Source of the DNA: Candidatus Saccharimonadales bacterium
GTDB lineage: Bacteria; Patescibacteriota; Saccharimonadia; Saccharimonadales; UBA10212
DNA: 64,000 nucleotides
NCBI GenBank assembly: GCA_035480715.1
Contig: DATIHL010000007.1
Coordinates: forward strand, 5,828-69,827
Reading direction: 5' to 3'
Part shown: positions 1,175 through 61,982 of the stretch, piece by piece
Layout: each line of letters begins with the position of its first letter
Position numbering within the stretch: the first letter of the stretch is position 1
Made by a program: the position numbers and the translations under genes
The notes under the pieces: generated by a model
Told to the model about the DNA's origin: nothing
Seen by the model: only the letters and a program-made list of their open reading frames with translations
The model's database searches: none

Positions 1175-1304
1175 ACCGCTTATGTTGTGTAAAATATGTT
1201 GTAAATCGTAGGAATGGCGTTGCGCGCACTCATAGAGCAAGTTATACTAGTTTTAAAATAAAGAAGCAAACATAAGAATTACTCTTAAATTGGAGGATAT
1301 AAAG

Positions 1305-1775
1305 ATGGCTCGAGGCAGCCAACAACAGGATGACTTGTTAATGGGCGATGATATTACAGCCGCTTTTTTGAGTGAAGACGAGGTGCCGGCACCTGACGAT
1401 ACGGCCGTTGCCGATCAAGCCCAAGTGGAAGAAGAGTGGGAAGATGAGCCAGCCGGCCAGCTAGCAGTTGACGTTTATGAGACTAAAGAAAAATTGGTAG
1501 TCAAGGGCCGCGTGGCAGGAGTTAATAAGAGCGACCTAGACGTCAGTATTTCTGATAACACATTGACAGTACGAGGCACTTTAAGTGCCGGCAATGAAGA
1601 CAATGTGGAAAACTACTTTCTCCAGGAATGTTATTGGGGCGAATTTAGCCGCAGCATCGTGCTGCCGGTTCCGGTAAAAGAAGAAGAAATTGAAGCCGTG
1701 CTAAAAGACGGCGTCCTTACAATCAGCTTCGCCAAAGTAAAGCAGGATACAGTCAAGAAGATCGAAGTTCTATAG
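1305..1775 (+). CDS. Hsp20/alpha-crystallin family small heat-shock protein
   Basis: The alpha-crystallin domain reads LAVDVYETKEKLVVKGRVAGVNKSDLDVSISDNTLTVRG...FSRSIVLPVPV..EIEAVLKDGVLTISFAKV. ATG 1305 follows GGAGG at 1292-1296. The track's TTG at 1290 is less likely. Confidence 0.9.
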   Translation: MARGSQQQDDLLMGDDITAAFLSEDEVPAPDDTAVADQAQVEEEWEDEPAGQLAVDVYETKEKLVVKGRVAGVNKSDLDVSISDNTLTVRGTLSAGNEDNVENYFLQECYWGEFSRSIVLPVPVKEEEIEAVLKDGVLTISFAKVKQDTVKKIEVL

Positions 1776-1827: not shown

Positions 1828-2247
1828 TTAGCTTGTAACTTGTTTTAGGACGAACCTAACCAAGACTTGGGCTAGAGCTACGATGATTAAGCCTATAACT
1901 GCATAGAGGATAGTATTTTTGGCACTTGTTACACCTGTATCGCTACCGCCGCTGGTGATATAGCGCAGGCCGCCCACAATAATCATAATTACAGCTACTA
2001 CGCCCACTATCAGCGATAGAAGGTTAATTACCGTATGGATAAGATTATTGATCTTGGCCGTAGCATCACTCGTACCGCTACAATCGCCAGTAGGATTATC
2101 AGTAAAGTGCAATTCAGCACCGGCGCATAATCCACTGTTAATCTGCTGCTGGCCGGTTTGAGCATAGGCTGGTATAGACTGACCCAAGAATAGTAAGCCG
2201 GACAAGCAACCAATACTTAGGTACAGCCTCATAAGAAATCTTGTCAT
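1828..2247 (-). CDS. T4SS pilin-like protein (VirB2/TrbC-type), paralogue 1
   Basis: 139 aa. It has a signal-like N-terminus ending ..SIPAYA, then a two-Cys variable loop (CAGAELHFTDNPTGDC). The conserved two-helix module follows: INLLSLIVGVVAVIMIIVGGLRYITSGG..AKNTILYAVIGLIIVALAQVLVRFVL. Confidence 0.65.
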   Translation of the reverse strand: MTRFLMRLYLSIGCLSGLLFLGQSIPAYAQTGQQQINSGLCAGAELHFTDNPTGDCSGTSDATAKINNLIHTVINLLSLIVGVVAVIMIIVGGLRYITSGGSDTGVTSAKNTILYAVIGLIIVALAQVLVRFVLKQVTS

Positions 2248-20903: not shown

Positions 20904-21175
20904 ATAATAATTCCTTAAATTAATTTATAGCTTCATTAGTTGGTGTTGTGGAACATGTGCTTAAACCAAAACCCAACAGACTAAAGTTGGCTATTTTGGG
21001 CTGTTTAAAAACTTGGCTAAAGTACACACGAGGTGTGTGAAAACTGGGTACAAAGATTGCTTGACTTGTTAAGTATTTAGCGCGCGTTGTGGGTTGTGGG
21101 TAAAACCCAACAAGCTTTACGCAGCTTCTGCATAAGCTTTTCACACCTTCTCCACAACATAAAACAATATATCTA
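20904..21175. promoter_or_regulatory. dnaA-dnaN spacer with DnaA-box-like motifs (candidate oriC half)
   Basis: TGTGGGTAA (21095-21103) and TTCTCCACA (21148-21156) each differ by one base from TTATCCACA/TGTGGATAA. TGTGGAACA (20947-20955) has two mismatches. The flanks are AT-rich. Confidence 0.5.
21057..21083. repeat. member of the TACTTAAC/GTTAAGTA palindrome family (degenerate left arm)
   Basis: The sequence is TGCTTGAC-TT-GTTAAGTATTTAGCGC. The 16-mer GTTAAGTATTTAGCGC (21068-21083) is identical to 24918-24933. Confidence 0.5.
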
Positions 21176-22564: not shown

Positions 22565-22805
22565 AATTTATCTATACCCCTTTAAAGCTTATCTTTTAGT
22601 CGATTTAATCTCTACTATAGTTAATCCCGACGGGTTTTTCCACAGCTTTGGCTAAAAACACTACAGTCCAAATCGCAAACCCGGCCTAAGGTAGAAAGTT
22701 ATACACACCAAGTGGCTACACCTGGTAATTGTGTGGAAAAAAACAGCTCAACCGTGGAAAACTGCTTCAGATTTGTGGTTTTGTGTAGTGAATTTGACTA
22801 GACGT
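22565..22805. promoter_or_regulatory. region upstream of dnaA with DnaA-box-like motifs (candidate oriC half / dnaA promoter)
   Basis: Three one-mismatch boxes are present: TTTTCCACA (22636-22644), TTATACACA (22699-22707) and TGTGGAAAA (22732-22740). CGTGGAAAA (22753-22761) has two mismatches. Confidence 0.5.
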
Positions 22806-24405: not shown

Positions 24406-24914
24406 ACGAAGACATTGAGGAAGCAATACTATATGCCAAAAAGTACCTAGAGGATCTACTATCGTTTTTTGGCCTTAACACCGATGTTTATGCCACGACC
24501 GAAGACCACGAAGTCATTGAGCTTAATGTTCCCTCCACTCACCTTAACGGCTTTTTGATTGGTCAGCATGGCGATACCATGCGGGCGTTGCAGTATCTAA
24601 TTAGTACGGCTCTAAAAAATCAAAACTATGCTCATACGCGGGTTAATGTAGATGTCGCTGATTATAAAAAAGCCCGGGCTGAGCGGCTAGTCTCAAGGGC
24701 AGAGGAGTGGTTTAGGGAGGTTCGCGAGGGCGGCAAGGCTAAGGAGCTGTTACCAATGAATGCTGCCGAGAGACGGGTGATACATAAGGCTGCATCGGAT
24801 TATGGCCTAGAGACCGAATCAGTGGGGGAGGGCAGGGAACGTCACATTGTGCTTAAACCGGCTGCAGCAGCTGCCGAAAAAGTCCCCGTCGAAACTGAGG
24901 AGCAAAATACTTAA
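24402..24914 (+). CDS. jag: Jag/KhpB-like RNA-binding protein (KH plus R3H domains)
   Basis: 170 aa. The R3H segment is LPMNAAERRVIHKAASDYGLETESVGEGRERHIVLKP. It overlaps yidC by 4 nt, as in the canonical yidC-jag pair. Confidence 0.88.
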   Translation: MNEDIEEAILYAKKYLEDLLSFFGLNTDVYATTEDHEVIELNVPSTHLNGFLIGQHGDTMRALQYLISTALKNQNYAHTRVNVDVADYKKARAERLVSRAEEWFREVREGGKAKELLPMNAAERRVIHKAASDYGLETESVGEGRERHIVLKPAAAAAEKVPVETEEQNT

Positions 24915-24928
24915 CATGTTAAGTATTT
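24905..24928. repeat. perfect 24-bp palindrome of the TACTTAAC/GTTAAGTA family
   Basis: AAATACTTAACATGTTAAGTATTT is its own reverse complement. It spans the stop codons of the convergent genes jag (24912-24914) and the GT4 gene (24919-24921). Confidence 0.85.
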
Positions 24929-26013
24929 AGCGCTTTACGGTAAACATCCAATGTCTGCTCGGCCAGGCGTTGCCATGAATATTTAGAAGCCTGGACTCTA
25001 CTGGCTCTAATCAATTCTGAGCGCAGCTTGGCATTCTCCAGAAGACCTTTAATTTTATTGGCTATATCCAGAACGTCTAAAGGCTTAAAATAATGGGCTG
25101 CATCACCGTAGATTTCCGGTAGGCACGTGGCGTTTGAACTTAAAACCGGAGCGCCGTGCACCATAGCTTCCAAGCCTGGCAGGCCGAAACCCTCGCTCAA
25201 AGATGGGAAAGCATAAGCAGCGCAGCGCTCATACAGCCATTTAAGCTGGGCGTCCGAGACAAATCCAACCAAACTTAGTCCCTGTATGTGTTCTTTCTCG
25301 GCCCAAGCTTCCAGTCGCTCATAAAGCACATCTTTTTTACCAGCTAAAACCAGTCTAAGTTCAGGATGCTTTTGGCGTGCTATAGAATAAGCCTCTACCA
25401 GCCGCTGCAGGTTTTTGTGCGGCTGCGGCCGTCCAACGTATAGCAAAAATTTTTGGCCGGTCAATCCTGTTACCGCGATTGGTAGATCGACTATTTTATC
25501 GGCTGCTTCATAAGTTACAGTAATTTTACTCGGCTTTATTTTTGCATATTGTGCGACATCGTTTTTTACGTACTTACTTGGCGTTATGACGTGGATCGAT
25601 TTATGAGCTACTATCCTAATAACCAATTTGTAAACTGCCTGCTTTAGGCCAAAAACCAGCTGGTTTTTGGCGGGATTACGGAAACGGGCCGTAGTTAGAT
25701 CGTGTATGGTGGTAACGGCTTTGCCGTGGTACAAAACCGGCTGCTGCGTGTGAGCAAAGTGCACCAAGTCGGCATTGAGAACCCGAAGCTGTTTTAAAAG
25801 CCCGATTTGTTCAGCAAATGTAAATTCTTTGAAATTAGACTCGATGACTTCAAAATCCGGCGCGATGGCCTTCATGAAATCGAGCCTATGCGGTTTTGTT
25901 AGGATTATAAAATCCAAATCTGGCTTGAGCTTCTGCAGGTTCTCTACCAGCTTATCGACATAACGCCCAGTACTGGTCCCCGACTCTCTGGCATCAATTA
26001 CAATCAGCGGCAT
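24919..26013 (-). CDS. glycosyltransferase family 4 (GT-B, retaining)
   Basis: 364 aa with the C-terminal EX7E-type motif FPSLSEGFGLPGLEAMVHGAPVLSS. Confidence 0.85.
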   Translation of the reverse strand: MPLIVIDARESGTSTGRYVDKLVENLQKLKPDLDFIILTKPHRLDFMKAIAPDFEVIESNFKEFTFAEQIGLLKQLRVLNADLVHFAHTQQPVLYHGKAVTTIHDLTTARFRNPAKNQLVFGLKQAVYKLVIRIVAHKSIHVITPSKYVKNDVAQYAKIKPSKITVTYEAADKIVDLPIAVTGLTGQKFLLYVGRPQPHKNLQRLVEAYSIARQKHPELRLVLAGKKDVLYERLEAWAEKEHIQGLSLVGFVSDAQLKWLYERCAAYAFPSLSEGFGLPGLEAMVHGAPVLSSNATCLPEIYGDAAHYFKPLDVLDIANKIKGLLENAKLRSELIRASRVQASKYSWQRLAEQTLDVYRKALNT

Positions 26014-27511: not shown

Positions 27512-28543
27512 ATGGCGAGCCGAAAAAGAGCACTCATTACTGGTATAACTGGGCAGGACGGTAGCTATTTGGCTGAGCTACTGCTGGATAAAAACTATGA
27601 AGTTTATGGGGTTATCCGCCGGGCCAGCACATTTAATACGCATCGGATTGACCATATTTACCAAGACCCACATGAGCGCGGCGCCCGCCTGCACTTGGTG
27701 TACGGCGACTTATCGGATGCCGGCTTTGTTTATGGTGCCCTGTCATCAATCCAGCCCGATGAAATCTATAACTTAGCGGCCCAAAGTCATGTGCGTGTAT
27801 CGGTGGACATACCGGAATACACCGGTGACATAGATGCCCTCGGTGCTGTTCGAATTTTGGAAGCTATGCATCGCCTAGGTCTTAAAAACTCTCGCTTTTA
27901 CCAAGCCTCCTCGAGTGAAATGTTCGGCAAAGTGCAGGAGACTCCACAAAAAGAAACCACACCGTTTTATCCACGCTCACAATACGCCGTCGCTAAGGTC
28001 TATGGACACTGGATAACTGTTAATTATCGCGAGAGTTACGGCATGTTTGCCTGCTCCGGCATTCTATTCAATCACGAAAGCCCGCGCCGGGGCGAAACTT
28101 TTGTCACGCGCAAGATCACGCGCGCGGTGGCGTACATCAAAGCTGGCTTGCAGGACAAATTGTATCTGGGCAATTTGGATGCCAAGCGCGATTGGGGCTA
28201 TGCTAAAGAGTACGTTGAGGCAATGTGGTTGATGCTGCAACAAGATAAGCCGGACGATTATATCGTCGCCACTGGCGAAACTCATGCAGTACGTGAATTT
28301 TTGGAAGAAGCCTTTAGATACGCCGGTCTGGACTATAAAAAGTATGTCGAATTTGACAAAAGGTATACCAGGCCAGCAGAAGTCGACCTTCTGATAGGGG
28401 ACGCATCTAAAGCCAAAAAAAAGCTAGGCTGGCAACCCAAGACCAAATTTAAAGAGTTGGTTAAAATTATGGTCGATGCCGATATGGAAGACTTGGACAA
28501 AAGGCTCAAAGGTAAAGTCCAGGCAACCCGCGAAGTTATCTAG
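27512..28543 (+). CDS. gmd: GDP-mannose 4,6-dehydratase
   Basis: 343 aa. [40 protein letters not shown] and ..SSSEMFG..YAVAKVY are hallmark Gmd strings. Confidence 0.95.
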
Positions 28544-29690
28544 AATTACTTAACGAGTCAAGTAGCTTTATCAATTTTTGGGCCGAAGCTTCCCAAGTAT
28601 ATTTCTTGGACTGGGAGAGTCCTGCCCTACTAAGATTGCTAGCTAATGTAGTGTCTGATAAAACTTGGTTGATGGCCGCCGTCAATGCTCGTGTATCCTC
28701 GGGCCTTATCTTAATGGCTGCATCACCGACAACTTCTGGCAACGAGCTGGAGTTGCTGGTAATAACCGGTACTCCGCACGCCATTGCCTCTAGTGGTGGT
28801 ACGCCAAAGCCCTCATAAAAAGAGGGCCAGATAAATACACTGGCGCCACTTAGCAGTGGAGCGAGTTCTTCATTCTCGATATAGCCAAGTAGTAATATCT
28901 TGTTGCCGGCTTTCTGCAGTTGTCCGATTTTACGGTAAATTCCTTCATCATTCCATCCTTTGCCACCACTTAAAACTAGTGCGTACCTAGTCTTCAACCC
29001 AGTATCTAGCTGCGCGTAGGCGTCTAAAATACCTTCAATATTTTTCCGAGGCTCGATAGTGCCGTGAAAATGAATATAGTTTTCCGGCAGGCTATATTTT
29101 TGACGGACTTTCCCTATGTCTATAGCTGGACGAGGGTAAAACCGCTCATGGTCAACGCCATTAGGGATGACTGTTATTCTGTCTGGAGGCAGCTTATAAA
29201 ATTCAGCTATCTCCTTTTTAGAATTTTCCGAAACCGTAATTATATGCGCCGCTCTTTTAATTGAACGCCTCAATAGCTTTGGGGTATATTTTAAATTTTT
29301 AGCCTGGGTAAACTGCGGGAATTTTATAAAGGATATGTCGTGCACTACAATTATTGATTTGGTGTTTTTGCGCAGTGGAAAAGCAATAAAATTAAAGAAC
29401 AAAAAAGCATCGTATTTTCTTAGTGCCACGAGGTCATAAGGAATAAACCAGTTTAAGCGTTTGAACACTTGGTAATAAATGATTGGCGGGAACCACTTAA
29501 CCAGTCTATAACTAAGACGGCTACTAGGCTTTAGGGGAGGTTTAAATTTTTTGAACACTAACCAATGGCGGACAATTTCAAAATTGATGTCGGAATCTTT
29601 TTTTGTCGCTGCTTCGATTAATCGCTTTGCATAGTAACCCACACCACTACTGCGCTTAAAAAATAAGCTGCCCTCTATGCCGACTTTCAT
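28536..29690 (-). CDS. glycosyltransferase family 4
   Basis: The motif [25 protein letters not shown] is present. The start is taken at MKVGIEG (ATG 29690), which overlaps the upstream stop as ATGA and is preceded by AGGAACAAAA. Confidence 0.85.
28547..28564. repeat. degenerate member of the TACTTAAC/GTTAAGTA palindrome family
   Basis: TACTTAAC-GA-GTCAAGTA has one arm mismatch. It lies in and just after the convergent overlap of gmd with the GT4 gene. Confidence 0.4.
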
Positions 29691-30769
29691 TTTTGTTCCT
29701 TCAGGCAATCATTATATATTTGCGCCGTTTTTTCTATCATAGTTTTAAGGCCGAAGCTAGCCTTCACGTGCTTACGCGCAGCGGCCTGAATATCTTGGTA
29801 CATTTTAGGGTTAGATACTATTTTATTAATTTGTTCTAAGAAATTGTTTTGGCTAGAATTACCAACCAAAATTCCCACAGAAGGATTATTAATAATTTCA
29901 GGTAACCCTCCGACATTCGTAGCTATAACCGGTACTCCGCACGCCATTGCCTCTAGGGCTACTAGTGGTATGCCTTCTGAAGTAGAAGTTAAGCAAAGCA
30001 AGCTGGCTTCGGTATAGACTAGATTAATTTTATCTGGCGGGCAGAACCCGTAAAGCTCTAAATTATCGATTCTGCGAGCCTTAATATATAAGCGGATGCT
30101 TGGTAAGAAACTGCCATCACCAACTATACGGAATTTATAATCTAGGCCTTGAGCCTTAGCAGCTTCAGCAATTTTTACAAATAACAACGGGTTTTTATCA
30201 GCCTCTTCTACGCGGCCAATCCAGGTTATATATTCCCCAGGTTCTGAGTTGGGCTCATAGCTTTCAACATCGATTCCATTATGGACAACAGCGCACTTAT
30301 CCTCATCTACGCCGCGCTTTAGTAAGTCCTTTTTAGTCTGTTCGCTAACGCAGATAACTTTTGATATTTTTGCAAAATTTTGGCGCACGGCTGCGTTGAA
30401 CTCCTCTGGGATTAAGAATCTTGTCAGCAAAGTAAGAGTTACATTGGGATGATTGATCGCCTCTATTAAAGCGCCATCAAAATCTTGCAGGCTTATCAGA
30501 TCATAGTTTTTAGCCTGAAATATAAATTTAAAGTACAGGCGGTAATAGATTTTGCGCAGCCGGTAATTACGCGGCAATCTCGCAAGTAATTTCGGAAACA
30601 GTATAAACCTATGTTTACTAATTACGCCCGCCAGTATACTAAGCGATCGTTTTTTAGCCAGCACAACCAAATCGAATTTAGCCTGCAACCCTGGCAATAA
30701 GCTGCTTAAGTAAACTTCTCCACCACCGATTGAACGGGCCTGGGTAATAAATAATATTTTAGGTTTCAT
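29687..30769 (-). CDS. glycosyltransferase family 4
   Basis: The motif [31 protein letters not shown] is present. The start is taken at MKPKILFIT (ATG 30769), preceded by AGGAACAAAAA. Confidence 0.85.
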   Translation of the reverse strand: MKPKILFITQARSIGGGEVYLSSLLPGLQAKFDLVVLAKKRSLSILAGVISKHRFILFPKLLARLPRNYRLRKIYYRLYFKFIFQAKNYDLISLQDFDGALIEAINHPNVTLTLLTRFLIPEEFNAAVRQNFAKISKVICVSEQTKKDLLKRGVDEDKCAVVHNGIDVESYEPNSEPGEYITWIGRVEEADKNPLLFVKIAEAAKAQGLDYKFRIVGDGSFLPSIRLYIKARRIDNLELYGFCPPDKINLVYTEASLLCLTSTSEGIPLVALEAMACGVPVIATNVGGLPEIINNPSVGILVGNSSQNNFLEQINKIVSNPKMYQDIQAAARKHVKASFGLKTMIEKTAQIYNDCLKEQK

Positions 30770-42257: not shown

Positions 42258-42998
42258 CTAAAGCTGGCCTGTAGAGAATACTTTTTTGTACCAACTTGTT
42301 ACTAGATTGAATGTTTTGGGCTTTTCGACCCAGTCTTCTATGAACAAACTTTCTGGATTTTCTAATTCGTCTTGGGGGAGCCCCAGTTTAGAGACTAGGT
42401 CGTTTCTGACAAAAATCATATTTCCAGTGTGGCAGACTAATGCGTAGCTTTTTTGTTGGCCAAGCTTGAGCATAGAAGTAAAACTCGCACCTGACAGTTC
42501 ACCGCTAGCTGCCAATTCTTCATAAGTAATACCGTTGGGTTGAACATATTCTTGGCTTAGCGGGATGCCGCTGTTGATTTCGATTACAACAACTCTTGGC
42601 TGATAATTCTTGAAGGCCTGCCATATCCACCAGTCGTACGAATCCGTATCAATACTTAAAAGGTCAAATTCCTTTGGCAGGGGAGTTTTCTTTAGTAGAT
42701 TATCTAAACTATTTTTTCCGCTCGTGCCAACAAATGCCTTGATAGTGTTCAATTTGTTAGGAAAGTCTGTCGATGCTTGTTGGAGATCCTTATATCGATC
42801 ACTATCCCCCTCGATATCCACACCATGCCAGTCGTCTTCCAGTAGTGCATAGGTATTACTCATATGCTTGGCATCCCACGCACCGAACTCCACAAACCAC
42901 CCCTTTTTTATATTAAGGCGCTCAAATATTTCTGCTAAGATGCCATCTTCGCCATTTTGGCTGTAGCGGTTTTTGGCGTATTTATAGAGTGTTTTCAT
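42258..42998 (-). CDS. hypothetical protein, possibly an FkbM-like methyltransferase
   Basis: 246 aa. The N-terminal YSQNGEDGILAEIF....GWFVEFGAWDAKHMSNTYALLE resembles the FkbM-type opening. This is weak pattern evidence only. Confidence 0.4.
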   Translation of the reverse strand: MKTLYKYAKNRYSQNGEDGILAEIFERLNIKKGWFVEFGAWDAKHMSNTYALLEDDWHGVDIEGDSDRYKDLQQASTDFPNKLNTIKAFVGTSGKNSLDNLLKKTPLPKEFDLLSIDTDSYDWWIWQAFKNYQPRVVVIEINSGIPLSQEYVQPNGITYEELAASGELSGASFTSMLKLGQQKSYALVCHTGNMIFVRNDLVSKLGLPQDELENPESLFIEDWVEKPKTFNLVTSWYKKVFSTGQL

Positions 42999-48273: not shown

Positions 48274-48305
48274 TAATAAATACTTAACTTGTTAAGTATT
48301 TATTA
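48274..48305. repeat. best member of the TACTTAAC/GTTAAGTA palindrome family (15-bp arms, 2-nt spacer)
   Basis: TAATAAATACTTAAC-TT-GTTAAGTATTTATTA lies between convergent genes. It includes the stop codon of the minus-strand PMM/PGM gene (48292-48294). Confidence 0.85.
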
Positions 48306-49635
48306 AATGAGAAATCTCTTTCACTAACTCATCCAACACTTCTTGATTATGGGACTCGGCGTTTAAACGAAAGAGCGGCTCTGTGTTACTCGGCCGTACG
48401 CTGAAACGCCAATCCTTAGAGTCGATAGCCAGGCCATCGGTCTTATCGACCCGGCCCTCTTTGCCAAACTTGGCCTCAATCAATTTAATAGATTCGATGG
48501 GGCTGGCGACCTGAAAATTAATTTCACCGGACACTTTATACTTCGTCATCAAAGGCTCTGTCAATTCCTTAAGGCTTTTTCCACTTTTAGATATCATTTC
48601 CAAGATTTTTAAGAAAGGCACAATACCATTGTCGGCATAAAAACTATCCCGGAAGTAGTAATGCCCGCTTGATTCCCCAGCAAATGGGGCGTCTTCGTGG
48701 CGCATTCTGGCTTTGATGAAAGTATGGCCTGTCCGGTGCGTGACCGGTATGCCGCCAGCTTCTTTAATTACATCGTCGATTACCCATGAGGTTGTTATGT
48801 CGTGGACTATTTTAGAGCCCGGATATTTTTTTAAAAAATCCTTCGCCAGCAGGGCGACTGTATAGCAGCTCGGAATGAACTCCCCGTCACCAGTAAAGAA
48901 AAAACAGCGGTCCGCGTCAGCATCCCAGGCTACTCCTAGATCTGGCTTAACCTTTTTGATGTAGCTGATGCTTTCTTCACGGTTTTCGGGCAACAGGGGG
49001 TTGGGTGGACCTTTAGGGAATGAACCATCCTCTTTCCAGTTCAGGCGGTATAGTTTGAGGTTGAGTTTTTTTGCCAATATATCCAATCCGCGTCCCACCG
49101 CTCCGAAGTTGGCGTTGGCGAAAACTTGAAGAGGTTTGATCGAATCTATATCTATATATGAAAGCACATGATTAATGTAGTCATCCAATATCGCTAAGGT
49201 TGTTAGTTTACCAGTTTTGCCTGTCGGTAGCCTATTGTTTGACAATGCCCAATCCCGCATAGCCTCTAAATCAGCACTACTTATAGGACCGCCGCCTGTT
49301 TCTGCAAACTTAAAGCCATTGTATTCACTGGGGTTGTGCGAAGCAGTCACCGAAATTCCGCCATCAAGCCCATAATTACCAACAGTAAAATATAATTGAT
49401 CGGTCGTAATCGTCCCGATGTCTACGACGTTCACGCCATTATTGAGCAGTGCTGAAATAAGATGTTCTTTAAGCCTGTTTCCGGAAAGGCGGACGTCTTG
49501 GCCGACTGCAACTTTTTTGGGTTTTCGAATTGCGATGAAAGCTTCACCGATCCTGCCGGCAAATTCCTCATCTAGTTGTTCTGGATATATACCTCGCACA
49601 TCATAAGCTTTAAAAATTGTTTCAAGATTACCCAT
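48292..49635 (-). CDS. phosphomannomutase/phosphoglucomutase
   Basis: 447 aa with the active-site loop TASHNPSEYNGFK and the metal loop GVAWDADADR. Confidence 0.9.
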   Translation of the reverse strand: MGNLETIFKAYDVRGIYPEQLDEEFAGRIGEAFIAIRKPKKVAVGQDVRLSGNRLKEHLISALLNNGVNVVDIGTITTDQLYFTVGNYGLDGGISVTASHNPSEYNGFKFAETGGGPISSADLEAMRDWALSNNRLPTGKTGKLTTLAILDDYINHVLSYIDIDSIKPLQVFANANFGAVGRGLDILAKKLNLKLYRLNWKEDGSFPKGPPNPLLPENREESISYIKKVKPDLGVAWDADADRCFFFTGDGEFIPSCYTVALLAKDFLKKYPGSKIVHDITTSWVIDDVIKEAGGIPVTHRTGHTFIKARMRHEDAPFAGESSGHYYFRDSFYADNGIVPFLKILEMISKSGKSLKELTEPLMTKYKVSGEINFQVASPIESIKLIEAKFGKEGRVDKTDGLAIDSKDWRFSVRPSNTEPLFRLNAESHNQEVLDELVKEISHLINT

Positions 49636-50650
49636 TGGATTTCCTTTCTATGGTTTGTTGCCAGCGCCAAGCATCAGCCACGGCATCTTGAACACTCCTT
49701 TGCGTTTTCCAGCCCAACCCTTTGTTGGCTTTTTTGGGTGACGCAAAATAAGCTGCTGGGTCGCCCGGTCTGCGAGGACCGATTTTATAGGGAACTTTAA
49801 CACCATTAACCTTTTCAAATGTCTTTAATAGCTCCAAAACGCTTGTCGGTTTACCCGTTCCCAAATTGTATACACTGTAGTTTTCGGCTGAATCTTTCTT
49901 TTCAAGCTTTTGCAGCGCAGCCACGTGGGCTTTAGCCAGGTCGACTACGTGGATATAATCGCGCAAGCACGTACCGTCTGGCGTGGGGTAGTCAGTCCCA
50001 TAAACAGTTAGGGAAAAAACTTGCTCTGTAGAAGCCTGAAGAATGATAGGTAGCAGATTTTGCGGTTTACCCTTAGGCCGCTCGCCGATTTTAGCCGAAG
50101 GGTGAGCGCCAATCACATTGAAGTATCGCAGAGCCACGCCTCTTAAAGTCGGGTTAGAAGCACATAAGTCACGAAGAACTATTTCATCCATATATTTGCT
50201 CCAGCCGTACGGGGAAGTGGGTGCGCACGTGGTATCTTCGGTGACTATATCAGTAGGCGGATTACCGTAAACAGCGGCGCTAGAAGAAAAAACAAAGTTA
50301 TTTATTTTTTGCTTTAGTAAATTACTTAACAAGTCAAGCATTCCAGACAAATTATTATTATAATACTTAAGTGGTTGCTCAACTGATTCTCCCACTGCCT
50401 TAAAAGCTGCAAAATGAATCACGCCGTCGATCTTTTCTTTAATCAGAATTTTTTGAATTCCTTTGTCTTGAAAATCGGTCTCATAACACGCTATTTGCTT
50501 GCCGGTAATTTTCTTAAGTCCACTCAAGACCGACTTATCCGAGTTACTAAAGTTGTCGACAATAACCGGACGATACCCAGCGCTCACAAGTTCCACTACG
50601 GTATGTGAGCCTATAAATCCAGCGCCCCCAGTTACCAAGATATTCTTCAC
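49628..50650 (-). CDS. galE: UDP-glucose 4-epimerase
   Basis: 340 aa with ILVTGGAGFIGSH and the YGWSK (YxxxK) catalytic motif. The length and C-terminus are GalE-like. Confidence 0.9.
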   Translation of the reverse strand: MKNILVTGGAGFIGSHTVVELVSAGYRPVIVDNFSNSDKSVLSGLKKITGKQIACYETDFQDKGIQKILIKEKIDGVIHFAAFKAVGESVEQPLKYYNNNLSGMLDLLSNLLKQKINNFVFSSSAAVYGNPPTDIVTEDTTCAPTSPYGWSKYMDEIVLRDLCASNPTLRGVALRYFNVIGAHPSAKIGERPKGKPQNLLPIILQASTEQVFSLTVYGTDYPTPDGTCLRDYIHVVDLAKAHVAALQKLEKKDSAENYSVYNLGTGKPTSVLELLKTFEKVNGVKVPYKIGPRRPGDPAAYFASPKKANKGLGWKTQRSVQDAVADAWRWQQTIERKSNG

Positions 50651-56899: not shown

Positions 56900-57379
56900 A
56901 TGGACGAAAAAAACACTGTCCGTCCCACAAAAAAGCAGCGTGAATTGCTAACTTTTATTGAAGAGTTTATCGCCGCCAAGGGCTACAGCCCAAGCTACCG
57001 CGAAATTATGAAGGGGCTAGAATACAACTCTGTCGCCACAGTGGCGCTGCATGTAAATAATCTGATAAAACGAGGTCATCTGCAAAAGCGTGACCATTCT
57101 GCCCGGTCATTGGAAGTGGTTAAGCCTGTTGGGGTGGATGAATCCAAAGTTGTGCCAAAGCAGCTCAAAGCCTCCGAAGAAAAGTGGCTGGTAGAGAAAA
57201 TCGAGCTGTTTTTTAAAGAAGTAGAGGCCGCACCCAAAATTATCGAGCACGAACTCGACCAGCTCTATGTTTTGATTGGCGCCCTCAAAGTCTTAGGCGT
57301 AGAGGGCGCGGCCAATGCTTTTATAGCCCGCTTAACCGAACTTAAGAAAAAACAATCGCAGAACGAATACGTTACCTAA
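56900..57379 (+). CDS. LexA N-terminal DNA-binding-domain protein lacking the S24 peptidase domain
   Basis: 159 aa. KKQRELLTFIEEFIAAKGYSPSYREIMKGLEYNSVATVALHVNNLIKRGHLQK matches the LexA winged-helix pattern. The C-terminal ~80 aa are helical and carry no Ser/Lys dyad motifs. Confidence 0.7.
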   Translation: MDEKNTVRPTKKQRELLTFIEEFIAAKGYSPSYREIMKGLEYNSVATVALHVNNLIKRGHLQKRDHSARSLEVVKPVGVDESKVVPKQLKASEEKWLVEKIELFFKEVEAAPKIIEHELDQLYVLIGALKVLGVEGAANAFIARLTELKKKQSQNEYVT

Positions 57380-61952: not shown

Positions 61953-61982
61953 TGTGAATACTTAACTTGTTAAGCATTCACA
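61953..61982. repeat. member of the TACTTAAC/GTTAAGTA palindrome family (14-bp arms, one mismatch)
   Basis: TGTGAATACTTAAC-TT-GTTAAGCATTCACA covers the stop codon of the yjbQ-like gene (61970-61972). Confidence 0.8.

Follow-up and report, generated by a model that had tools for sequence, protein, structure and literature searches.

A recurrent 8-2-8 palindrome of Saccharibacteria as the probable recognition site of a conserved MarR-type regulator

Proteins of the MarR family act as dimers on palindromic or pseudopalindromic sites of ~20 bp, to which they bind in successive major grooves of the DNA (PMC2650471). In the operators of MarR (marO), MepR, OhrR and HucR, the palindrome bound by a dimeric protein of this winged-helix family lies over the -35 box and spacer of the promoter from which the regulator itself is expressed, and a similar arrangement is found for the palindrome described here, TACTTAAC-NN-GTTAAGTA, which recurs in a 64,000-nucleotide (nt) stretch (the window) of a Candidatus Saccharimonadales metagenome-assembled genome (MAG) and was scanned for with mismatches allowed. 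The 8-2-8 symmetry of the element fits a homodimer, its length of 18 bp lies within the ~16-20 bp characteristic of operators of this family, and the motif presumably also resembles the 8-2-8 operator of HucR. Unlike the known operators, however, the palindrome is present in tens of copies, many of them perfect, which lie beyond the locus of the regulator at stop codons, at convergent junctions and in frame within housekeeping genes, and its sequence is invariant across a whole phylum. In these respects it is closer to the SlmA-binding sites (SBS), the Noc-binding sites (NBS), and the matS and parS sites of MatP and ParB, which are palindromes of 12-18 bp that occur in tens of copies, within and between genes regardless of gene function, and are bound by dimers of transcription-factor-like families. 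SlmA, for example, is a TetR-family protein. The present system differs from these in that the candidate binder is of the MarR type and in that canonical parS is not found in the window.

The explanation favoured here, which we regard as probable, is that the palindrome is the DNA-recognition site of a conserved MarR-type regulator of ~140 amino acids (aa) and that it has become dispersed beyond the promoter of that regulator. A gene for a MarR_2-domain protein of this size, located downstream of ksgA, recurs beside sites that were found by the motif, and in five species the palindrome is situated 36-45 nt upstream of the start of this gene. As an independent test, the five MarR proteins were aligned and metagenome contigs were searched by protein similarity alone, with 80 of 490 confirmed loci being kept. 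Of the 74 loci in which the upstream DNA extended to 100 nt or more, the palindrome (≤3 mismatches) was present in 62, at a distance of 38-106 nt from the start of the tblastn match, in comparison with no site (≤2 mismatches) in the 153 kb of flanking DNA of the same loci that served as background. Most of the loci scored as negative still show a degenerate CTTGAC-NN-GTTAAG, the usual form at the marR promoter being the slightly relaxed TACTTGAC-NN-GTTAAGTA. Because this position recurs in loci chosen without regard to the motif, the reading that suits the palindrome best is that of an operator for a dimeric winged-helix regulator; the operator of a dimeric regulator was among several possibilities that a preliminary description of the window had offered.

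The geometry of the site at the marR promoter is fixed. The left arm contains TTGAC in 46 of 56 distinct marR promoters, a TAnnnT hexamer follows 16-18 nt downstream in 47, and both features are present in 45, with no conservation of the sequence around the palindrome. By this criterion the palindrome overlaps the -35 box and spacer of a sigma-70-type promoter, in the classic layout of autorepression, and since the site covers both of these elements, a bound dimer would be expected to block RNA polymerase. The candidate regulator itself matches the Pfam family MarR_2 (PF12802) at 42.6 and 30.9 bits, relative to a cutoff of 27, and its nearest solved relatives in a profile search of the PDB are 3nrv and MepR. 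Conservation within the protein is highest in the recognition helix, Q[TS][EQ][AP][SN][VI]SRQ, in keeping with an operator that does not vary. The order of genes is rpfB-like, ksgA, operator/promoter and marR, followed by a major facilitator superfamily (MFS) transporter gene in 10 of 25 long loci, which is a further likeness to the MarR-family operators described above.

The ksgA gene upstream of marR carries extra in-frame copies of the motif in some lineages, with an exact site near codon 80 and another, a near-site, over a conserved ...LINSLS... peptide close to the C-terminus (L145 at 1856, L170 at 1889, L152 and L181 at about -1100 from marR, and many loci at -210 to -330), so that the neighbourhood of marR often holds two or three sites. 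A separate conserved motif, (A)CTCCCCTGCCC, is found a few bases past the stop codon of ksgA, 8-12 nt ahead of the marR operator, in many loci (L128, L146, L150, L151, L162, L168, L171, L172, L179, L198 and others), as well as at 42677-42687 of the window on the reverse strand. Of the 86 palindrome sites scanned in the marR loci, about 15 have this motif in front of them, and no partner arm was seen.

Within the window there are six copies of the palindrome (≤3 mismatches), compared with 0.37 expected, and none of 100 dinucleotide shuffles reached six sites; the family is therefore real. Raising the tolerance from 2 to 3 mismatches adds no site, and the family is thus cleanly bounded. The copies, together with a seventh on the same contig, are as follows.

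21058-21075, TGCTTGAC-TT-GTTAAGTA, two mismatches: in the dnaA-dnaN spacer, 155 nt upstream of dnaN; the same TTGAC variant as at marR promoters; no folding on the transcribed strand.

24905-24928 (core 24908-24925), perfect 24-bp palindrome AAATACTTAAC-AT-GTTAAGTATTT: between the convergent jag/KhpB-like gene (plus strand) and a GT4 glycosyltransferase gene (minus strand), the TAA of each arm (24912-24914 and 24919-24921) being the stop codon of one flanking gene; RNA hairpin -13.6 / -9.7 kcal/mol, z -4.6 / -3.4.

28547-28564, TACTTAAC-GA-GTCAAGTA, one mismatch: 4 nt past the gmd stop codon and within the last codons of a convergent GT4 gene (28536-29708), where it is read through in the open frame (...LLDSLSNSR*); minus-strand hairpin not significant (-3.8 kcal/mol, z -0.4).

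48274-48305 (core 48281-48298), exact core with 15-bp arms around the 2-nt centre: between the convergent genes for mannose-1-phosphate guanylyltransferase (plus strand, stop codon 48268-48270) and phosphomannomutase (minus strand), the stop codon of the latter being the TAA of the right arm (48292-48294); hairpin -11.2 / -11.9 kcal/mol, z -3.8 / -5.2.

50323-50340, two mismatches: inside galE (49628-50650, minus strand), the coding strand of which reads TGCTTGAC-TT-GTTAAGTA; in the single open frame, encoding MLDLLSN; no significant hairpin.

61953-61982 (core 61959-61976), one core mismatch (GTTAAGCA) and 14-bp arms TGTGAATACTTAAC / GTTAAGCATTCACA: between tandem minus-strand genes, holding the yjbQ stop codon (61970-61972) and lying 25 nt upstream of a flavin-reductase-like gene; on the transcribed (minus) strand the mismatch becomes a G-U pair, with a hairpin of -19.1 kcal/mol, z -4.8.

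L216 2583-2600, TACTTGACTAGTTAAGTA: seventh copy, on the same contig, ~5.8 kb past the end of the window.

The five copies that had been reported previously ("at least five") are all present, with the one given as 21057-21083 being placed at 21058-21075, and the tally lacked only the copy in galE. The report of three copies between convergent genes is likewise borne out, as is the 16-mer GTTAAGTATTTAGCGC common to the copy at 21058-21075 and to 24918-24933. The spacer between the arms, previously given as two or three nucleotides, is 2 nt in every copy and never 3. The TAA within the arm is the true stop codon of jag (plus strand) and of the GT4, phosphomannomutase and yjbQ genes (all minus strand). 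The two arms are obligately paired: of the 9 GTTAAGTA half-sites in the window, 8 form part of a full palindrome, isolated half-sites show no enrichment in 703 kb (36, against 27.5 expected), and only the 8-2-8 arrangement occurs. The dnaA-dnaN spacer is taken to be non-coding because relatives with 79-87% identity in DnaA share only 20-38% identity in the small open reading frame (ORF) called there, and a small gene between dnaA and dnaN was rejected on this basis. The seventh copy is located 36 nt upstream of a gene for a 409-aa protein with a C-terminal zinc-ribbon, and its homologue in another species (L029) is likewise preceded by a copy, at a distance of 40 nt; this gene may be a second conserved 5' target of the palindrome.

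The motif is conserved phylum-wide. When the exact 16-base pattern TACTTAACNNGTTAAGTA was scanned in one genome per prokaryotic species, it was found in at least 119 stretches of the species-representative genomes, and among the matches listed ~88 are in MAGs of many species of Saccharibacteria, Saccharimonadales or Saccharimonadia; the DnaA protein encoded in the window is likewise assigned to Candidatus Saccharimonadales. Such a spread over a phylum-level group argues for sequence-specific recognition and not for a generic hairpin. The density of full sites ranges from ~1 per 10 kb in the window to <1 per 50 kb elsewhere. In its extended form the consensus is a palindrome of 22-24 bp, aAATACTTAAC-WW-GTTAAGTATTt, with A-rich flanks on one side and T-rich flanks on the other; as had been proposed, only the core is common to the copies and the flanks are specific to each. 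Among intergenic copies, 21% have at least 6 extra contiguous base pairs, relative to 1.4% with shuffled partners, and intragenic copies show no extension of the stem past the AAA/TTT consensus. Four exact sites were also found in SMAG_U15678, a MAG labelled Candidatus Babeliales (L028, L036, L047 and L090), one of them at the same codon position of ValRS as in Saccharibacteria (ILNKLSN); this bin may be mislabelled or contaminated with Saccharibacteria contigs.

The positions of the palindrome relative to genes were analysed for the 106 sites with ≤2 mismatches in the Saccharibacteria loci and the window, which are distributed as follows.

Inside genes: 56 sites.

Tandem junctions: 22 sites.

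Convergent junctions: 16 sites.

Locus edge: 8 sites.

Divergent junctions: 4 sites.

Outside genes, the sites are biased towards gene ends, in agreement with the 3'-end preference anticipated in the preliminary description: of the 42 intergenic sites, 31 are no more than 20 nt away from a stop codon and 15 include one. Convergent junctions account for 38% of the intergenic sites, compared with 18% of the junctions and 12% of the spacer length (p=0.0017), and the divergent, promoter-bearing spacers are depleted. The copies at gene ends hug the upstream stop codon and keep no fixed distance to the downstream start codon. Inside genes, the sites are restricted to one frame. On either strand, two of the motif's three reading frames contain TAA; the motif as a consequence persists only where this triplet is tolerated, and nearly all intragenic sites occupy the only open frame, xTA CTT AAC NNG TTA AGT Axx, and encode [I/L]LNxLS[I/N]; the two sites off this frame are mismatch variants in doubtful ORF calls.

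The host genes of the intragenic copies are unrelated (RecX, FolD, ValRS, TsaB, RNase HII, GatB, IscS, ApbE, GlyA, a histidine kinase and others), and the copies replace residues while leaving the length of the protein unchanged, as illustrated by DHWILNKLSI in ValRS. In orthologues without the site, the peptide is retained in none of seven other TsaB, three FolD and two RecX proteins. Conversely, the peptide ILNESSK of PilB is retained while its codons vary freely, with 5-10 mismatches to the motif. Taken together, the loss of the peptide from orthologues lacking the site and the drift of the PilB codons indicate that the constraint acts on the DNA sequence. The RecX orthologues that carry the site retain all 16 bases at a median protein identity of 50%, a figure subject to ascertainment bias because these loci were selected by the motif. 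On the basis of these comparisons, and of the three window copies that form no hairpin on the transcribed strand, selection acts on DNA rather than on protein or RNA, and the sites are lineage-specific, indifferent to the identity of the gene and derived by substitution rather than by insertion. The palindrome provides a clear example of a DNA motif dictating protein sequence, in the form of the internal peptide ILNxLS[I/N] and of C-termini ending Asn-Thr.

A mechanism consistent with these features can be proposed in which a two-fold symmetric 8-2-8 site, the half-site centres of which are 10 bp apart, or one helical turn, would be recognised by a homodimer of the MarR protein, which would itself be the binder. 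On its own promoter the dimer would exclude RNA polymerase and thereby repress its own gene, and the copies in the window would be further high-affinity sites for the same protein. The motif would survive where its TAA triplets are tolerated, either at stop codons, in which case it is often itself the source of the stop and the protein ends in Asn-Thr, or in the single open frame of a coding sequence. The hugging of stop codons, the enrichment at promoter-free convergent junctions and the extension of about one fifth of the copies into hairpins fit a role as roadblocks or insulators, and the dispersed copies may accordingly act as protein-bound barriers of this kind at gene boundaries. The copies with arms of 12-19 bp (24905, 48274 and 61953 in the window) may in addition serve as bidirectional RNA hairpin terminators or as stabilisers of 3' ends.

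Several observations weigh against the assignment of the palindrome to the MarR protein. An ordinary local MarR repressor has one or few operators. The dispersed sites number tens, and many of them, at convergent gene ends or inside housekeeping genes, are better matches than the operator of marR itself, a pattern that is not explained by known MarR biology. No marR gene was found in the window by tblastn, and the genes that follow the 5'-located sites have no relation to one another and form no coherent regulon. The copy-specific stem extensions (21% versus 1.4%) are unneeded by a DNA-binding dimer and point to an added RNA or DNA hairpin function or to a mutational bias. Furthermore, the binder could be a different protein that merely regulates marR.

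The same facts also fit a chromosome-level role that ignores the identity of the gene, with sites persisting where they are least harmful. According to this alternative, which we consider unlikely although it fares best among the competing explanations, the palindromes are gene-independent chromosomal marks comparable to SBS, NBS, matS and parS, bound by a dimer that is possibly the same MarR-type protein, and tens of such positions serve nucleoid occlusion, segregation, condensin loading or origin control, so that the position matters and not the neighbouring gene. It accords with the finding that orthologues have either a perfect site or nothing at the corresponding place, whatever the gene, and with the occurrence of sites in the least harmful places, that is, with enrichment at convergent junctions and depletion from divergent, promoter-bearing spacers. 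Sites also recur near the origin in several species, at the 3' end of jag (in the window, L120, L219, L220 and L223), in the dnaA-dnaN spacer (in the window and in L219, where the copy is 153 nt upstream of dnaN) and in the rnpA/rpmH-dnaA spacer (L050, L220 and L221). The five origin-proximal sites in 128 kb differ from the absence of sites in the 153 kb of marR-locus flanks (p=0.02), but the enrichment is not significant in comparison with secondary sites in the motif-found loci (p=0.2), and along one 776-kb contig the exact sites are dispersed (at ~333, 423, 505 and 591 kb). The lack of a canonical parS in the window also speaks for this alternative: the consensus TGTTNCACGTGAAACA has no match with ≤3 mismatches there, and it is unrelated in sequence to the motif. 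Neither the marR copy that overlaps a promoter nor the hairpin extensions are accounted for by marks of this kind alone.

With regard to the origin region itself, three matches to the DnaA box (TTWTNCACA) are found within 105 bp (22636-22740) in the rnpA-dnaA spacer, immediately upstream of dnaA, and probably represent oriC or the dnaA promoter; the dnaA-dnaN spacer contains no strict DnaA box. A conserved gene block adjoins dnaN-recF in this genome (10877-18063 of the window) and in all six sampled relatives (13.8-21.4 kb in L219-L224). It encodes large proteins without Pfam hits, a cell-wall hydrolase of the Phage_lysozyme2/SLT/VanY type and a VirB4/TraG-like P-loop ATPase (PF19044, DUF87), and is similar to a type-IV-secretion or conjugation-like module that has become fixed close to the origin.

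The preliminary description had also proposed a lineage-specific terminator, and in its pure form, which we judge to be improbable, this explanation holds that the palindromes are intrinsic, protein-independent, bidirectional RNA hairpin terminators or 3'-end stabilisers. The resemblance to bidirectional intrinsic terminators, and to the bacterial interspersed mosaic elements (BIME) formed by repetitive extragenic palindromic (REP) sequences, extends to the location at gene 3' ends, the enrichment at convergent junctions and the stable hairpins with A/T flanks formed by some copies, and to this extent the proposal is partly supported: the bias towards stop codons and convergent genes is as given above, the flanks are A-rich and T-rich, 21% of intergenic copies are stem-extended, and three copies in the window (24908, 48281 and 61959) have folding energies of -10 to -19 kcal/mol and z scores of -3.4 to -5.2. 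Terminators of the canonical GC-rich type show no enrichment in the window (14, against 13.8 expected), and another convergent junction in the window uses an unrelated palindrome. Other features speak against the proposal. The other three copies (21058, 28547 and 50323) are unfolded on the transcribed strand (z above -0.4), and 56 of the 106 sites are inside genes, in frame and with no stem extension in their flanks. The 7-bp stem of the core is nearly all A-U with a single G-C pair, and its T residues are within the stem and not in a trailing U-tract, so that the palindrome lacks both the G+C-rich stem-loop and the proper U-tract of an intrinsic terminator. In addition, a hairpin requires no fixed 16-base sequence throughout a phylum, and the marR copy is built into a promoter.

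The unrelated element at the other junction is a perfect 36-bp palindrome (1794-1829) with 17-bp arms, AAATATAAAACACCTCA-AA-TGAGGTGTTTTATATTT, between convergent hsp20 (1290-1775, plus strand) and an ORF at 1828-2247 (minus strand); it is unrelated to the family and has the appearance of a common bidirectional terminator hairpin. Searches with Rfam covariance models gave no match at the palindrome sites, and the only two sequences to reach the gathering threshold in the window are tRNAs, the genes of which are on the minus strand within 241-430.

A DNA uptake signal, comparable to the DNA uptake sequence (DUS) of Neisseria or the uptake signal sequence (USS) of Pasteurellaceae and accumulated by biased uptake and recombination in naturally competent Saccharibacteria, is very unlikely. 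Saccharibacteria are naturally competent, and the palindrome shares with DUS/USS, and with the highly iterated palindrome HIP1, its restriction to one lineage (here a single phylum), its iteration and a dual signature of stem-forming inverted pairs at gene ends and of intragenic copies that prefer one coding frame and impose a peptide. DUS and USS occur at a density of about one per kb. Compared with these elements, the palindrome is longer (16 specified bases), much rarer, as is apparent from the densities given above, and obligately dimeric with a fixed spacing, in that single half-sites are not enriched, and its fixed place over the -35 box of marR is left unexplained by uptake. Cyanobacterial HIP1 itself was rejected, with no copy of GCGATCGC in the window.

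Finally, a miniature mobile element copied by a transposase, whether REP-like, as had been suggested previously, or of the miniature inverted-repeat transposable element (MITE) type, would account for a palindrome in many copies that often lies at gene 3' ends between convergent genes, but is scarcely credible for a family in which only the 18-22-bp core is common and the flanks differ from copy to copy, the AT-rich core is invariant phylum-wide, even across species with proteins only ~50% identical, the intragenic copies substitute residues without insertion, and exact hits in viral contigs number only 10, with no enrichment. No transposase was seen among the genes neighbouring the sites, no search having been aimed at REP-associated tyrosine transposases (RAYT).

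Two other features of the window were considered. LexA was rejected as the binder of the palindrome: a protein with a LexA DNA-binding domain is encoded at 56900-57379 (159 aa, with no Pfam hit to peptidase S24), and its gene is not preceded by a palindrome of the family. The octamer GCCAAAAA/TTTTTGGC is found 22 times, compared with ~2.3 expected, always within genes and for the most part in frame 0 of the sense strand (Ala-Lys-Lys/Asn) or frame 1 of the antisense strand, and two of its copies form a perfect 24-bp palindrome, GCCAAAAACCAGCTGGTTTTTGGC, at 25648-25671 inside the GT4 gene; this excess probably reflects codon and peptide usage.

Operators of MarR proteins are elements of a familiar kind, and what is unusual here is the phylum-wide dispersal of such an operator to stop codons and reading frames; full-text literature searches returned no description of this motif or of a MarR regulon in Saccharibacteria. 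We suggest tentatively, and with some doubt, that the MarR protein has been co-opted from a local repressor of an efflux operon into the reader of a genome-wide DNA mark, whose sites would act as ligand-responsive roadblock terminators or insulators or would organise the nucleoid or the origin. If this were so, selection on an operator would be strong enough to overwrite amino acids in housekeeping proteins and to provide convergent genes with their stop codons, in the setting of a minimal genome with few regulators in which canonical terminators are not enriched. To our knowledge, almost nothing is known of gene regulation or chromosome organisation in Saccharibacteria and other bacteria from the candidate phyla radiation (CPR). 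The palindrome offers a simple signature for spotting Saccharibacteria contigs in metagenomes, and with the MarR-type protein it supplies a testable pair of cis-element and candidate regulator, conserved phylum-wide, and points to a possible protein-dependent marking of gene boundaries in compact genomes.

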